A DNA stretch of 46,878 bases from a virus (IMGVR_UViG_2529292735_000017), one strand, 5' to 3'; shown: positions 4,756 through 46,171, numbered from the stretch's first letter. Program-made: numbers and translations. The notes: a model not told the origin generated them from the letters alone.

Positions 4756-4808
4756 GGGCGGCAGAGCAGTCACGGAGTAAAACTGATACCGCCAAACGTC
4801 ACCAGAAA
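4756..4808 (-). ncRNA. dicF: DicF small RNA (ftsZ-targeting)
   Basis: Minus-strand sequence TTTCTGGTGACGTTTGGCGGTATCAGTTTTACTCCGTGACTGCTCTGCCGCCC followed by a U-run matches my recollection of the 53-nt DicF; lies in the spacer upstream of dicB as in Qin. Confidence 0.75.
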
Positions 4809-9014: not shown

Positions 9015-10364
9015 TTATTCCGTTTTACATATCATAGTAGTCGATTGGAGAATATAGTTTCTGGGAATGTACTCTTCAAAGTGTTCGTCCTTTTTAAATA
9101 CATGAACTACATTTGGGAATAATTGATAGTCAACAGGGTGTATAGCGTTTGGATTATGGTACATGTACATGGCTGTACACCATGGTTCTTGATAGTTAGG
9201 GTCACTTACATCGGCTGAAAATGGATGTGGGGCTGCATCCTGATCAGTTTTAACACCACTGACGTACACTTTGAATCCACTCGCCTCTACACCTGCAAGA
9301 ATTCCCATCCGGTTAAACTTAGGTATGGTTGCTTGAGTAGTGAGTAAAACGGCAGAAACATAATTATTTTGTTCTGAGCCAAAAAAGTTCGACTTGATAC
9401 TTCTATTTTCATCTGTATGTCTTTCAATAGAAATGCCTGACTCAATATCAATCCCGTACAAATAGCTATGCAAGGCTTCGCTTGAGAAGGCCATGGACAT
9501 TCTTTTTGAATAATCCTGCATTGCTATGACAAATGGTTTGTTCTTTGTATGGTTGAGTTCCCAGTAATGAACTTTCTCTGGCTCAGGGCAATGCCGGACT
9601 TTTTTTAATAAACTTCTTGCAAACTTAAAAGGCATGACATTTAGAACATGTTTTCTTAATTCATCCATCTGTTCATCGTTAATGACTTTTCTTTCAAGAG
9701 GGGCTTCTGCTTCAGCAATGCTTACAGCCTCTACAGCAATTTCCACTCCAAATTTAGATAGCAGAAAATCTGGTTGATTGTATTCTCTATTCATTTCAAA
9801 GTCGAGTTCATAAAATACAGCGTTCAAATATAATTCAAATAACCTTGAATTAAATGCATCACTTTGAAAATCCCTTATAAATATTCCATCAGGATCTTTG
9901 AACCAGTATGCAAGTTCCTCAAGAACAATATATGCAGGGAAATGAAGAGGGTCTTCGAGGAGCATTTTTATATAAACATTCCTTTTTTTCTCTGGGACTT
10001 TACTCAAGAATAATGAAAAAGGTTTGGATGATTCATCGCCTTGCATGAATGTACCATTTTGGTGCTGCGCCAGCATCTTTGGTATGTCATCGTTCAAATT
10101 ATTAAGCAAGACATCCATTGAATCAAATGAAGCCAAGACGTTTATTGCTCTGAATTTTTTATCTAAATCCCGACCTAAGACTATTGCGTTAAAATCTTTA
10201 TCAATATTGCATATGATTATTGTGGATAACAATGTTATCCCATTCCCCTCATATTTAAACCAGCGTATCTCCTCAGAAAATGTCTTAAGGTAAGGTGAGC
10301 GACCGTAAAAATAAATATCAAATTGTTCTTTGCTGATCTCACTGAAGTGTAATCCTGCGTTCAT
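9015..10364 (-). CDS. Uncharacterised 449-aa protein (orphan moron; candidate defence/accessory gene)
   Basis: Long uninterrupted ORF on the strand opposite all flanking phage genes; visibly AT-rich; no Walker A, HExxH or other motif I can assign. Confidence 0.8.
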   Translation of the reverse strand: MNAGLHFSEISKEQFDIYFYGRSPYLKTFSEEIRWFKYEGNGITLLSTIIICNIDKDFNAIVLGRDLDKKFRAINVLASFDSMDVLLNNLNDDIPKMLAQHQNGTFMQGDESSKPFSLFLSKVPEKKRNVYIKMLLEDPLHFPAYIVLEELAYWFKDPDGIFIRDFQSDAFNSRLFELYLNAVFYELDFEMNREYNQPDFLLSKFGVEIAVEAVSIAEAEAPLERKVINDEQMDELRKHVLNVMPFKFARSLLKKVRHCPEPEKVHYWELNHTKNKPFVIAMQDYSKRMSMAFSSEALHSYLYGIDIESGISIERHTDENRSIKSNFFGSEQNNYVSAVLLTTQATIPKFNRMGILAGVEASGFKVYVSGVKTDQDAAPHPFSADVSDPNYQEPWCTAMYMYHNPNAIHPVDYQLFPNVVHVFKKDEHFEEYIPRNYILQSTTMICKTE

Positions 10365-10514: not shown

Positions 10515-11107
10515 CATCTGACCACACTGTTAACTGGAGTAACGACTATGGCAGGAATACAGCATAACCAAACTCACCCCAAACTTACATAGCGCTTTCT
10601 GGCCGTGAGCATAACAAGGTCCACTCCTCGCTCAAAGCGGACTAGAAGGTTAGCTTGTGTCGGACTTTGCGTATTAAATGACTAGTGGTTGAGCCCCATT
10701 TCCACAGAAAAAATCAGAGAAACTATACCCAATAGTTGTATTGAATCACTGACGAGACAGCCTCATATTCATCAGGACTGGTGTACGTCCAATACAGGAG
10801 GTTGTGGTGCTGGTTCTCAAATGTGCGCTGGCTATTACGGCTGTAATGGCGATTTATTGTCTTGCTATTGTTCTTATGGATCGCCTTTCTGACTGATTTC
10901 ACATTGGCGAGGTAACGGTAGTTAAGTAGAATGGCTGCGGGTGCTTGAGGCTATCTGCCTCGGGCATGAACACCAACGGCAGATAGAGAAAAGCCCCAGT
11001 TAACATTACGCGTCCTGCAAGACGCTTAACATTAATCTGAGGCCAATTTCATGCTAGACACATGTAGGTTAGCCTCTTACGTGCCGAAAGGCAAGGAGAA
11101 GCAGGCT

Positions 11108-11263
11108 ATGAAGCAGCAAAAGGCGATGTTAATCGCCCTGATCGTCATCTGTTTAACCGTCATAGTGACGGCACTGGTAACGAGGAAAGACCTCTGCGAG
11201 GTACGAATCCGAACCGGGCAGACGGAGGTCGCTGTCTTCACAGCTTACGAACCTGAGGAGTAA
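11108..11263 (+). CDS. hokD: Hok/Gef-family type I toxin (HokD/RelF-like)
   Basis: 51 aa MKQQKAMLIALIVICLTVIVTALVTRKDLCEVRIRTGQTEVAVFTAYEPEE: a single transmembrane helix plus conserved Cys/Tyr tail typical of Hok; AGGAGAAG RBS. Confidence 0.85.
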   Translation: MKQQKAMLIALIVICLTVIVTALVTRKDLCEVRIRTGQTEVAVFTAYEPEE

Positions 11264-11332
11264 GAGACCCGGCGAGGGAGAAATCCCTCGCCACCTCTGA
11301 TGTGGCAGGCATCCTCAACGCACCCGCACTTA

Positions 11333-11352
11333 ACCCGCTTCGGCGGGTTTTT
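11333..11352 (+). terminator. Intrinsic terminator downstream of hok
   Basis: ACCCGC-TTCG-GCGGGT stem-loop followed by a T-run; preceded by a second hairpin GGCGAGGG…CCCTCGCC. Confidence 0.5.
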
Positions 11353-11479
11353 GTTTTTATTTTCAACGCGTTTGAAGTTCTGGACGGTGCCGGAATAGAA
11401 TCAAAAATACTTAAGTAGCGCGCAGGGATAAGAGGGATGGTCCCTTAAAGGGGAGAGCTAATTATCCGGAAGGATTCTG

Positions 11480-11731
11480 ATGATGAACATCGAAGAACTG
11501 CGTAAAATTTTTTGTGAAGATGGCCTCTATGCGGTGTGCGTTGAAAATGGAAATCTTGTTAGTCATTACCGCATTATGTGTTTGCGAAAGAATGGGGCTG
11601 CGTTAATTAATTTTGTGGATGGTCGAGTGACAGACGGATTTATCTTGCGCGAAGGTGAGTTTGTCACTTCATTACAGGCACTGAAAGAGATCGGAATAAA
11701 AGCAGGCTTTTCAGCTTTTGCAGAAGAATAA
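11480..11731 (+). CDS. rem: Rem-like hypothetical protein
   Basis: 83-aa ORF; size and position next to hok and ydfU match Qin rem; identity from memory. Confidence 0.55.
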   Translation: MMNIEELRKIFCEDGLYAVCVENGNLVSHYRIMCLRKNGAALINFVDGRVTDGFILREGEFVTSLQALKEIGIKAGFSAFAEE

Positions 11732-11797: not shown

Positions 11798-12076
11798 ATG
11801 GCACGCAACGTAAAATATTACAATTCTGATAATTCGCCCGTTCTTGCCTGCACGCACGAGCGGTATTCTCACGCATTCAAGTCTGAATGGTTCCAACACC
11901 CTCCATGCACTGAAGAGCAGGCTGAATGGATAATTCAGTGTTACCGCAGGCGCGGATACGAGGTTAAGAAAGCCCTTAGTCTCGACTACCGTCACTGGAT
12001 AATCTCAGTCAGATTGCCTTACTCCGAACGCCCACCACGTGCGTCCCGCACTTTCCAGCAACGGATCTGGAGGTAA
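11798..12076 (+). CDS. Hypothetical small protein
   Basis: 92-aa ORF ending 2 nt before the ydfU GTG start; weak RBS; coding status uncertain. Confidence 0.35.
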   Translation: MARNVKYYNSDNSPVLACTHERYSHAFKSEWFQHPPCTEEQAEWIIQCYRRRGYEVKKALSLDYRHWIISVRLPYSERPPRASRTFQQRIWR

Positions 12077-14436: not shown

Positions 14437-14476
14437 ATTGCGGAATTAATTACGGACCGTTATTATTCTGCTCCCG

Positions 14477-14552
14477 GCCCTTTAGCTCAGTGGTGAGAGC
14501 GAGCGACTCATAATCGCCAGGTCGCTGGTTCAAATCCAGCAAGGGCCACCAT
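14477..14552 (+). tRNA. tRNA, anticodon CAT (ileX/ileZ-like tRNA-Ile2; Met not excluded by anticodon alone)
   Basis: 76 nt with 7-bp acceptor stem GGCCCTT/AAGGGCC, anticodon loop cTCATAa, GGTTCAAATCC T-arm, 3' CCA; closely resembles remembered E. coli ileX. Confidence 0.85.
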
Positions 14553-14651: not shown

Positions 14652-14728
14652 GCGTTGTTAGCTCAGCCGGACAGAGCAATTGCCTTCTAAGCAATCGGTC
14701 ACTGGTTCGAATCCAGTACAGCGCGCCA
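14652..14728 (+). tRNA. tRNA-Arg (anticodon TCT)
   Basis: 77 nt; acceptor stem GCGTTGT/ACAGCGC, anticodon loop CTTCTAA, GGTTCGAATCC T-arm, 3' CCA. Confidence 0.85.
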
Positions 14729-15192: not shown

Positions 15193-15725
15193 ATACATAT
15201 CTGGATTATCACCTGTTACGGTAAAAAGTGATTGCTTACTGTTTTTGTGAATGGCATTGCAGCAGCCGGATAATGTCAGTGCTGGCTGACGGTGTGCTGG
15301 TGGCGGGTGTGGTGGTTGTTGCTTTCCCGTTGCTGAAAAAGAAAACGCCAGACTGTTAGCCGGGTATCAGTTAGCGGGAGAAATTTTTAAATACTTCACA
15401 ATTCAGGCGGTTGACTGTTCTCTGGTTTGCGGGGAGTTTGTTAAAAGAAACTGGCATGGTGAATCCCCCTGTGCGGAGGGGCAATCAGCGAGTAGGTATA
15501 TGGGATAATCGCGGATTCAGGTGCTGGTACTGAATTCACCGGGAGGCACCCGGCACCATGCACTTCAATAGATTCTCTCCACATTATGGATATTCTTTCA
15601 GAATATCCCACGCAGACTTTGTGTAAATGTTAACAAATGTGCGTTTTATTTGATCTGATTCGCTGTTTGAGCGTCCAAAACAACGGTATATATAATCCTT
15701 TACTATATGACATATGTGAGGAAAA

Positions 15726-16700: not shown

Positions 16701-17007
16701 CTCTTCAATTACTATATCTCATTCATAGCAAACTGACAGATTTGATGATGTTCTATATACGAAACCTGTGATGTCAAGTCTGAGCTAATACAAATAAACA
16801 TAATATCAGAGAAATACATTTTATTAGCTCGCTACGGCGAGCTTTTTATATTGCATCGTCTCCAGCATATATATCAATTAAGGCTCTGATTGATGTGTCT
16901 GGAAGCCTACACATAATAGACTGGCCCCCTGAATCTCCAGACAACCAATATCACTTAAATAAGTGATAGTCTTAATACTAGTTTTTAGACTAGTCATTGG
17001 AGAGCAG

Positions 17008-21019: not shown

Positions 21020-21382
21020 ATTAATATTAAATCGGATTATTTTTAGCGCTGAATGTGAAATTTAAATAAAAAGGACTCTTCCATGAGTCAAAATCCTTGA
21101 AATCTTAAGGGTAAGATAAAAGGTCATTAGACAGAATGACACGTTTTATTAATAAATAAAGCTATTGTTTCATTCGTGTGTTTTTCTTTACAAAAGTAAT
21201 CCTTGCTATGGTTGGTTAATCATGCGTTAATGGTGTTCTGGTTTGTTACAAAATTATCTGAAGCAGTCATTGTTATAATTTTATTATTTGTACCTCTTGA
21301 GATTTCCTTGTTGGTTTTTCTCTCTGATATTTTTTTTCGGACCATTCTGCCCAAGGGCTAACTTCTTCAAAAGGTAATAATG

Positions 21383-21595
21383 ATGTCTAACAAAATGACT
21401 GGTTTAGTGAAATGGTTTAACCCTGAAAAAGGTTTTGGTTTCATCACGCCGAAAGATGGTAGCAAAGATGTGTTTGTGCATTTCTCAGCTATTCAGAGCA
21501 ACGATTTCAAAACGTTAACTGAGAATCAGGAAGTCGAATTTGGTATTGAGAACGGACCTAAAGGCCCTGCAGCTGTTCATGTAGTGGCACTTTGA
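21383..21595 (+). CDS. Cold-shock protein (CspA family)
   Basis: 70 aa [38 protein letters not shown]… with RNP1/RNP2 motifs; long AT-rich 5' leader. Confidence 0.85.
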
Positions 21596-21800
21596 GGTAG
21601 AAAATATTACAAACCATATTCACTTTAGATGCCCGTGTTGCCATGGTTCTCAGTATAGAACATCATCTTTTGATGTTTCTGACAGAAATCCTTTCGGGGC
21701 AAAATGTATCTTTTGTAAATCAATGATGATTACATTTGATAATATTTCACAATACTTAAATGTTAGCCATCTGTCGTTAGATTTAAGAAAGTGAAAATGA

Positions 21801-35900: not shown

Positions 35901-36022
35901 CGAACGGGCAGATAGGTCCGGCTGCCCTGAAGGTGGTTTATGACCTTGGGAAAAAAGCGGCAGCGGACTTTATGCAACAGCAGGCCCGTGATGGTGGTCG
36001 GTTAAGTGGAGCATATCGGTAA
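32958..36022 (+). CDS. H: Tail tape measure protein H; reading frame interrupted in an A6 tract at 35091-35096
   Basis: Coiled-coil N-terminal two thirds to a stop at 35108; -1 frame continues with a gpH-like C-terminus (…GGIYQSADLS…RPTFFAFAKGAGVMGEAGPEAILPL…) to 36022. Confidence 0.75.
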
Positions 36023-36351
36023 TGGAGACGTTTCACTGGAAAGTGCGCCCGGATATGAATGTGGTATCAGAGCCGAAAGTGGTGACAGTGAAGCTGGGCG
36101 ATGGTTATGAACAGCGTCGTGCGGCGGGACTGAATAACCAGTTGTCGATTTACAGCGTGACGATACGTGTTCGTAAATGTGAACACCCATCTTTAAAAGC
36201 CTTTCTGGAACGGCACGGTGGCGTCCGCGCATTTCAGTGGACGCCACCTTATGACTGGAAGCCGATCAGGGTGGTTTGTCGTAAATGGTCGGCAAGCGTG
36301 GGGGCGTTGTGGGTAACCATAACGGCAGATTTTGAACAGGTCGTGGCATAG
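36022..36351 (+). CDS. M: Minor tail protein M
   Basis: 109 aa, same length and position as lambda gpM. Confidence 0.8.
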   Translation: METFHWKVRPDMNVVSEPKVVTVKLGDGYEQRRAAGLNNQLSIYSVTIRVRKCEHPSLKAFLERHGGVRAFQWTPPYDWKPIRVVCRKWSASVGALWVTITADFEQVVA

Positions 36352-45587: not shown

Positions 45588-46171
45588 TGGCATTCAGAAT
45601 GAGTGAACAACCACGGACCATAAAAATTTATAATCTGCTGTCCGGAACTAATGAATTTATTGGTGAAGGTGATGCATATATTCCGCCTCATACAGGTCTG
45701 CCAGCAAACAGTACCGATATTGCACCGCCAGATATTCCGGCTGGTTTCGTGGCTGTTTTCAACAGTGATGAGTCATCGTGGCATCTCGTTGAAGATCATC
45801 GGGGTAAAACGGTTTATGACGTGGCTTCCGGCGACGCGTTATTTATTTCTGAACTCGGCTCATTACCGGAAAATGTCACCTGGTTATCCCCGGAAGGGGA
45901 GTTTCAGAAGTGGAACGGCACAGCCTGGGTGAAGGATACGGAAGCAGAAAAACTGTTCCGGATCCGGGAGGCGGAAGAAACAAAAAACAGCCTGATGCAG
46001 GTAGCCAGTGAGCATATAGCGCCGCTTCAGGATGCTGTAGATCTGGAAATCGCAACGGAGGAAGAAACCTCATTGCTGGAAGCCTGGAAAAAATATCGGG
46101 TGTTGCTGAACCGTGTTGATACATCAACTGCACCTGATATTGAGTGGCCTACGAACCCTGTCAGGGAGTAA
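45587..46171 (+). CDS. tfa: Tail fibre assembly protein (Tfa)
   Basis: 194 aa; ATGA overlap with stf stop; typical position. Confidence 0.85.

Follow-up and report, generated by a model that had tools for sequence, protein, structure and literature searches.

A very probably intact hok/mok/sok toxin-antitoxin cassette of the hokD/hokW lineage in an mEp460-like lambdoid phage

Positions 10904 to 11358 of the viral DNA studied here (IMGVR_UViG_2529292735_000017; the whole stretch of 46,878 nucleotides is called the window below) very probably hold an intact hok/mok/sok type I toxin-antitoxin cassette of the hokD/hokW lineage of lambdoid prophages, that is, a moron with a promoter and a terminator of its own, for which a contribution to lysis is the likeliest use. 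The hok/sok family has been a textbook case since the 1980s, and the cassette is an ordinary, complete copy of this long-known system. It is also already known in itself: the exact DNA is public in a deposited phage genome, the protein is that of K-12 HokD, and a near-identical prophage cassette has been characterised. The value of the locus is a corrective one, as it represents the intact form of a cassette of which a truncated relic is left in K-12. In public annotations the toxin ORF is the one part that is marked (sometimes under the wrong name, 'MokW'); sok, the leader ORF and the RNA elements are missing. In addition, the relatives provide a natural experiment on the frame of the leader ORF (0, +1 or +2) and on the variability of the Sok target, which could guide work on cross-talk; many hok/sok copies are present in pathogenic E. 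coli.

Toxin gene, leader and antisense gene

The toxin gene (a hokD allele; 11108-11263, plus strand) encodes a protein of 51 aa, MKQQKAMLIALIVICLTVIVTALVTRKDLCEVRIRTGQTEVAVFTAYEPEE. The protein matches Pfam HOK_GEF (PF01848) over the entire profile (positions 1-42 of 42) with 82.9 bits against a cut-off of 22 (E 1.2e-23), and PHROG 251 ('MokW-like host killing') with 114.7 bits, which bears out the identity as a Hok/Gef membrane toxin that was proposed in an earlier note on this DNA. The NCBIfam Hok subfamily models scored under their curated cut-offs (48.5 vs 73), and in the PADLOC search neither Hok nor Rem, the product of the downstream neighbour, was matched by a model. The earlier description of a 51-aa ORF with a single hydrophobic stretch and a Cys/Tyr-containing tail also agrees with what is found: one hydrophobic stretch at about residues 6-24, followed by a polar tail with Cys30 and Tyr47. 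The protein has the form that is typical of the Hok/Gef family, i.e. about 50 aa, one N-terminal transmembrane helix and a polar tail with a Cys and an editable Tyr (TAC-G); the rule for the tail (a conserved Cys plus either a second Cys or an editable Tyr) is described in PMC5630033. One RefSeq accession (WP_000813254.1) covers the protein of the 100% identical copy in strain FDAARGOS_497 as well as that of K-12 hokD, and the predicted phage toxin is therefore exactly HokD/RelF. The Shine-Dalgarno sequence of hok, AAGGAG (11093-11098, plus strand), is located 9 nt 5' of the ATG, and the motif CAAGGAG is nearly invariant across 51 aligned hok loci.

The Tyr47 codon and the G that follows it form a TACG motif (11246-11249, plus strand), a candidate site for TadA A-to-I editing, which would change Tyr to Cys. 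The longer motif TACGAA (11246-11251; the Tyr47 codon plus GAA) is invariant in 51 of 51 diverse hok loci, synonymous positions included. TadA editing from Tyr to Cys has been reported at the matching position of the K-12 hokD mRNA (PMC5630033, PMC12214031). The TACG of the phage copy coincides with that site, and the same recoding would be predicted here. A tRNA-Arg-like hairpin around the motif was considered and rejected: it places TACG in a loop, but at -3.1 kcal/mol (z -0.12) the fold brings no independent evidence.

The full cassette spans ~10904 to 11358. The extent of 11108-11352 that had been assigned to the feature does contain the toxin and the 3' elements, but it is too narrow, being the 3' two-thirds of a unit that starts about 200 nt further upstream, at ~10904. 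There, the promoter scan (9/12) places the putative hok mRNA promoter, TTGGCG - 17 nt - TAGAAT (10904-10932, plus strand). It is of the sigma-70 type, its -10 element ends 6 nt 5' of the first position of the Rfam leader model, and TAGAAT/TATAAT-like hexamers occupy the same alignment column among the relatives; transcription of hok would start at ~10939. The leader upstream of hok, some 170 nt in length, carries the conserved structure of the family. Indeed, Rfam RF01794 ('sok'), a model that is written on the hok-sense strand, matches the leader and sok-complementary region at 10939-11113 (plus strand) from end to end (model positions 1-157 of 157) with 115.3 bits, the gathering score being 59 (E 1.1e-26).

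The leader contains the equivalent of mok (11051-11263, plus strand), taken from the ORF list, and its Shine-Dalgarno sequence, GAGG (11039-11042, plus strand), which was read from the sequence 8 nt 5' of the ATG at 11051. The succession of GAGGC, 7-9 nt and ATG is conserved among the relatives. In the window this ATG precedes that of hok by 57 nt and the ORF runs through the hok start in the same frame, which would result in a product of 70 aa, i.e. an N-terminally extended Hok. Among 127 sampled leader-bearing relatives, 101 share this in-frame position of the ATG at 57 nt. Another 15 have it 56 nt upstream, where it opens a 19-aa ORF with a TGA that overlaps the hok ATG (ATGA), and the other 11 have it 58 nt upstream (70 nt in one case), in the +1 frame. 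The position of the leader ATG is thus fixed in the 127 relatives, whereas the frame varies (0, +1, +2). Since the ATG and its Shine-Dalgarno sequence are kept in place and the frame is not, the conserved leader start agrees with the view that it is translation through the hok start that matters and not a particular Mok peptide. The in-frame extension to 11051 that was pointed out in the earlier note is therefore real, and it differs from the arrangement of the R1-type plasmid hok/mok loci; it is not unusual, however, since K-12 mokC/hokC and the 101 relatives are alike in this respect. With an in-frame leader the primary translation product may be a 70-aa pre-Hok and not the 51-aa peptide.

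Single-nucleotide indels (at 11089/11090; alignment columns 171-172, 187 and 208) convert the leader ORF from one to another of three forms, namely the in-frame ORF of 70 aa, the overlapping ORF of 68-69 aa in the +1 frame and the 19-aa form that ends in ATGA. One of these indels falls in the Sok -35 region (TTGCCT vs TTGACC).

The predicted gene for the Sok antisense RNA (10990-11059, minus strand) is ~70 nt long and consists of a single-stranded 5' tail, a long hairpin and a U run; its ends are estimated from the fold and from the likeness to SokW. The minus-strand fold has a free energy of -32.8 kcal/mol (z -5.05). The putative promoter (11066-11094, minus strand), read from the sequence, has a -35 element TTGCCT (11094 to 11089), a 17-nt spacer and a -10 element TAACCT (11071 to 11066). 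With a score of 8/12 it is absent from the list of the consensus scan, which has a threshold of 9/12, and it was located via its homology with the mutated -10 element of sokW: the Sok -10 is the very sequence that was changed in the promoter-less sokW construct (primer YO-421 vs wild-type probe YO-597, PMC8621323). SokW itself is 71 nt long and complementary to the hokW 5' UTR (PMC8621323). At the sequence level, the predicted Sok gene (promoter, ~70 nt, hairpin plus U run) overlaps the start of the leader ORF, and on this reading of the locus an antisense RNA gene controls the toxin. The earlier note did not recognise this leader and its sok gene, and treated as a single toxin gene what is a complete type I cassette; its proposal to look for an antisense RNA from the upstream region was, however, a step in the right direction.

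Relatives, distribution and annotation

The same cassette architecture is found in hokW-sokW of Sakai prophage 5 (Stx2 phage Sp5; Takada et al. 2021, PMC8621323), which is also a lambdoid prophage. The Sp5-type Stx2 phage locus has ~94% DNA identity with the window over 10920-11335, and both loci have the in-frame leader start (70-aa ORF), the same Sok -10 element and a Sok of ~70-71 nt. The toxins are identical at 46 of 51 residues and differ at the C-terminus (...VFTAYEPEE in the window vs ...VFVDYESEK in HokW). The Sok-target segment reads ATGCTAGACACATG in the window and ATGCTGAACACATG in Sp5, the DNA 3' of the fold-back inhibition (fbi) element and the terminator is unrelated, and the flanking genes differ. 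HokW was shown to be toxic and to be neutralised by SokW, in a system that is partly dependent on RNase III and Hfq (PMC8621323). In the same study, both hokW and SokW RNAs were present in the uninduced Sp5 lysogen and SokW was lost after mitomycin C; HokW production was RecA-dependent and the protein was located at the inner membrane. Growth arrest came earlier with the locus, and phage release was about halved without it (PMC8621323).

The protein encoded by hokD (relF) in the Qin prophage of K-12 is identical to the toxin of the window. Between 11094 and 11420 the two loci have 99.4% DNA identity; they share the TACG editing site, and the downstream neighbours are those found in the window (rem, a hypothetical ORF and ydfU). 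K-12 hokD keeps the toxin, fbi and the terminator, but it is devoid of everything 5' of 11094, i.e. the hok promoter, the 5' element, the mok Shine-Dalgarno sequence and ATG, and all of sok; relBE is present there instead. On this comparison, the window holds the intact ancestral form of the truncated K-12 hokD relic.

Another K-12 locus, hokC(gef)/mokC/sokC, resembles the window in its leader ORF, which is in frame and begins 57 nt upstream, and in its antisense RNA, which overlaps the leader start. In the annotation mokC (16751-16960) and hokC (16751-16903) share their stop codon and begin 57 nt apart, and sokC overlaps the start of mokC. The HokC toxin is ~80% identical to that of the window, and the 5' element and fbi are conserved. 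In contrast to the window copy, hokC is chromosomal and not part of a prophage, its Sok-complementary stem is shorter because of a 21-nt deletion in the leader, and it is disrupted downstream by IS186.

The hok/mok/sok loci of R1 and related IncF plasmids follow the same logic (a stable folded mRNA, 5'-3' pairing, a leader ORF, a cis-antisense Sok and a membrane toxin). The role of R1 hok/sok is plasmid post-segregational killing. Conservation at the DNA level between the R1-type plasmid loci and the window is found at 11031-11112, the core around the leader start and its Shine-Dalgarno sequence. Unlike the mok of the window, the R1-type mok has its start 58 nt 5' of the hok start and overlaps hok in the +1 frame; an example is the leader protein (DUF5431) annotated on a Klebsiella plasmid of the IncF type whose Hok is R1-like, which precedes the hok ATG by 58 nt and is in the +1 frame. 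R1 Hok and HokW have an identity of ~44% (PMC8621323).

The DNA at 10900-11420 is 100% identical to that of Escherichia phage mEp460_ev081 (LR597641.1), as are the first 23.4 kb of the window. Related DNA, annotated hokD, was found in 4722 of 5426 complete E. coli genomes, at a median of 2 and a maximum of 9 places per genome. In LR597641.1 the toxin ORF (35915-36070, equivalent to 11108-11263) is labelled 'MokW protein', and this is the lone annotation of the cassette. Other labels of the toxin ORF are 'gef: phage maintenance protein' (the 70-aa form) in the PPompW phages and 'hypothetical protein' in Stx2 phage I. In the phage and plasmid records inspected, sok and the leader ORF are unannotated, except in phage Rac, for which mok is annotated.

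Several further RNA elements in the window matched Rfam above the gathering score: a DicF sRNA (4756-4807, minus strand), two tRNAs (14476-14548 and 14652-14725, plus strand), an STnc100 sRNA (15425-15615, plus strand), a cspA-type thermoregulator 5' UTR of a prophage cold-shock gene (21225-21641, plus strand) and an IS009 RNA (45930-46128, plus strand). As a set, they fit the layout of a Qin/Rac-like lambdoid phage.

Fold of the hok mRNA and the Sok-target segment

The full-length hok mRNA would run from 10939 to 11353 (plus strand; ~415 nt) and comprise the leader, the mok/hok coding region, fbi and the terminator. This 415-nt transcript has a minimum free energy (MFE) of -173 kcal/mol (z -8.54), and none of 100 shuffled sequences was equally stable. 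In the MFE structure the two ends of the mRNA are paired: the tac-like 5'-terminal element GGGUGCUUGAGG (10939-10950, plus strand) pairs with the fbi element CCUCAA-C-GCACCC (11313-11325, plus strand). Such 5'-3' pairing in the R1 hok mRNA is known as fold-back inhibition (fbi).

The structure was projected onto an alignment of 51 non-redundant hok loci, taken from phages, Escherichia, Kluyvera, Photorhabdus, Pantoea, Erwinia and others, in which the pairs were counted. Overall, 86.1% of the cells are paired, against 38-43% when the partners are slid by 1-3 columns. Changes on both sides were observed in 52 pairs over the 51 loci, and the observed covariation score was reached by none of 500 shuffles. 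The helix between the 5' and 3' ends (helix 1) is paired in 92.8% of the cells; a U:A pair is replaced by C:G in 10 of the 51 loci and is left unpaired in none. Downstream of the stop codon there is a GC-rich hairpin of 9 bp, GGCGAGGGA/GAAA/TCCCTCGCC (11271-11292, plus strand; -20.7 kcal/mol, z -4.5), of which the helices (22 and 23) are 97-98% paired. Four of its pairs change on both sides, e.g. from A:U to G:C in 17 loci.

The intrinsic terminator of the hok mRNA (11332-11358, plus strand), found by the terminator scan and by folding, has a GC-rich stem of 7 bp and a TTCG loop (AACCCGC/TTCG/GCGGGTT at 11332-11349; -12.3 kcal/mol), followed by a T run; it is common to many, not all, of the relatives. 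The two hairpins that had been noticed 3' of the gene, the second of them an intrinsic terminator, are therefore both present. Since the 5'-3' helix and the post-stop hairpin are conserved with covariation, what had been called a structured 3' region is made up of the conserved post-stop hairpin, then fbi, then the terminator. When the RNA was cut at 11312 and folded in silico, the 5' hairpin changed and no clear tac-ucb helix was formed. Matches of 11267-11353 to the isrK-like and rsmX-like Rfam families (25.7 and 21.5 bits) were far under the gathering scores and were rejected as a generic resemblance to a hairpin plus terminator.

Variation between the copies is concentrated in one segment (11044-11066), which comprises the mok start and the target hairpin and is complementary to the Sok 5' tail; with its 20-25 nt it is both the Sok 5' tail and the Sok target. 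In an alignment of 72 loci that encode an identical Hok, the mean column entropy is 0.83 bits at 11048-11057, compared to 0.1 bits or less in most other 10-nt bins; a few bins in the leader and the 3' region have intermediate entropy. At least 14 variants of the segment occur among the 72 loci. Copies that reside in the same genome mostly differ in their variant, as in E. coli ECMA0423, S. flexneri SFBU1023 and others, a small sample of few multi-copy genomes. It is a tentative suggestion, somewhat less probable than its converse, that the segment is under diversifying selection for orthogonal Sok/hok pairs, such that each prophage would control only its own toxin. If true, prophage type I toxin-antitoxin systems would possess a specificity code akin to incompatibility.

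Proposed mechanism, role and genomic surroundings

The mechanism that we propose is drawn in part from the sequence and the comparisons made here, and for the rest from the R1 hok/sok paradigm and from hokW-sokW of Sp5. A constitutive promoter would give rise to a stable mRNA of ~415 nt, the 5' end of which (10939-10950) pairs with fbi (11313-11325). The pairing itself is seen here; in this closed form the mRNA would be neither translated nor bound by Sok. As deduced from R1, slow trimming from the 3' end would take off the terminator and fbi, whereupon the RNA would refold. Ribosomes would then enter at the leader Shine-Dalgarno sequence (11039) and ATG (11051) and pass over the hok Shine-Dalgarno sequence and start, to yield either the in-frame product of 70 aa or, by translational coupling, the 51-aa Hok; the geometry is apparent in the locus and the coupling is supposed. 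The unstable Sok of ~70 nt (minus strand, ~11059 to 10990) would pair with the leader start region, and this would block translation and lead to cleavage by RNase III. For this step the anatomy of the gene is that of the present locus, and the activity is that of SokW, with its dependence on RNase III and Hfq. Upon loss of Sok, Hok would insert into the inner membrane and cause depolarisation. Toxicity of the present Hok and its neutralisation by Sok are predicted from the ~90%-identical HokW/SokW.

The cassette is positioned between the replication genes and the ydfU-rusA-Q region of an mEp460-like phage. Its role is most likely to help lysis upon induction, in analogy with the Hok of Sp5, which speeds lysis and phage release; the analogy draws on a single study, of a homologue with a toxin that differs in 5 of 51 residues. 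Retention of the prophage and exclusion of superinfecting phage are possible as additional roles.

Downstream of hok the window has rem (11480-11731, plus strand; 83 aa), a gene named in K-12, and an ORF of 92 aa (11798-12076, plus strand) that is conserved in K-12 Qin and matches only phrog_1212. Searches of Pfam, PHROG and NCBIfam returned for rem only phrog_340, a PHROG to which no function is assigned. The downstream order (rem, the 92-aa ORF, ydfU (DUF968), rusA, Q) is shared with K-12 Qin. The hok terminator and a separate promoter-like site, TTGAAG-18-TAGAAT (11372-11401, plus strand), as found in the promoter scan, stand between hok and rem. Neighbours were counted at 65 IMG/VR phage loci that encode an identical Hok and have full flanks: rem is found downstream in 25 of the 65 and ydfU in 47, and PD-T7-1 is found upstream in none. 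The toxin/accessory island with the adjacent ORF that was envisaged in the earlier note is not supported, as rem is located beyond the hok terminator, has a promoter-like site of its own and is present in only 25 of the 65 phage loci. As a self-contained module, the hok cassette occupies a slot that recurs while the neighbours change, and it is not part of a two-gene island.

In view of its close relative in K-12, the phage copy could be thought of as a decayed relic as well, reached by read-through transcription only and lacking a working antitoxin and leader. The protein is that of K-12 HokD, the K-12 copy is leaderless with homology from 11094 onward, just after relBE, and the chromosomal hok loci of K-12 were judged inactive in earlier work, as cited in PMC5630033. 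This reading is nevertheless very improbable: the leader, both promoters, the mok Shine-Dalgarno sequence and ATG, fbi and the terminator are all in place here, the match to the RNA model is full-length, the intact architecture is kept across genera with compensatory changes, and the intact homologue of Sp5 works (PMC8621323). The chance is slighter still that we are dealing with a lone Hok, in which an atypical in-frame extension replaces mok and which forms a two-gene island with the ORF at 11480-11731. Such a reading could appeal to the in-frame ATG at 11051, as opposed to the R1-type mok 58 nt upstream in the +1 frame, and to rem, which adjoins hok both here and in K-12 Qin. However, the 57-nt in-frame layout is the curated state of K-12 mokC/hokC and the majority state among the relatives, the hok terminator and a promoter-like site precede rem, which follows an identical hok in no more than 25 of 65 loci, and the family annotation of rem is limited to a PHROG without an assigned function.

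A different question is whether an intact cassette serves mainly in anti-phage defence (abortive infection) or in prophage retention, as part of a defence hotspot with PD-T7-1. We regard this as unlikely, although far less so than the two preceding alternatives. A full-length PD-T7-1 gene (9015-10364, minus strand, 521.5 bits) is located immediately upstream, and the literature reports both a part of R1 hok/sok in phage defence and an enrichment of hok in prophages. Yet hok is not enriched near defence systems, according to a preprint (bioRxiv 10.1101/2025.08.07.668861), and at the 65 other phage loci that carry this hok PD-T7-1 is never found on the upstream side, so that its adjacency to hok is incidental; a functional link between the two was rejected on this ground. 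Moreover, the sole functional data for a prophage copy favour lysis and phage release (PMC8621323).

The ORF of 449 aa at 9015-10364 (minus strand) matches the anti-phage defence protein PD-T7-1 of PADLOC over residues 8-447; it also matches PD-T7-5 with 137 bits and phrog_8571, gives no match in Pfam or NCBIfam, and is labelled 'hypothetical protein' in LR597641. It adjoins hok/sok upstream in what is a variable cargo slot: the otherwise identical prophage of FDAARGOS_497 has a different ORF there, of 340 aa and on the plus strand.

Finally, an unannotated ORF of 29 aa (10807-10896, plus strand) encodes a hydrophobic peptide, (M)LVLKCALAITAVMAIYCLAIVLMDRLSD. Its GTG start follows 6 nt after AGGAGG, a possible promoter (TTGAAT-17-CATATT) is located at 10743-10771, and the stop codon is directly adjacent to the -35 element of hok. 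Copies with unrelated upstream DNA (L055, L032) retain both the ORF and its Shine-Dalgarno sequence, and the substitutions are mostly conservative. The ORF is found ahead of hok in 16 of the 65 phage loci and is present in 4 deposited phage genomes, in which it is labelled at most 'hypothetical'. The product is possibly a small membrane protein, or else a second toxin-like peptide. A terminator-like hairpin (10619-10642, minus strand) lies between this small ORF module and the PD-T7-1 gene, at the left-hand boundary of a block of ~330 bp (10612-10938) which accompanies hok in some of the phages.
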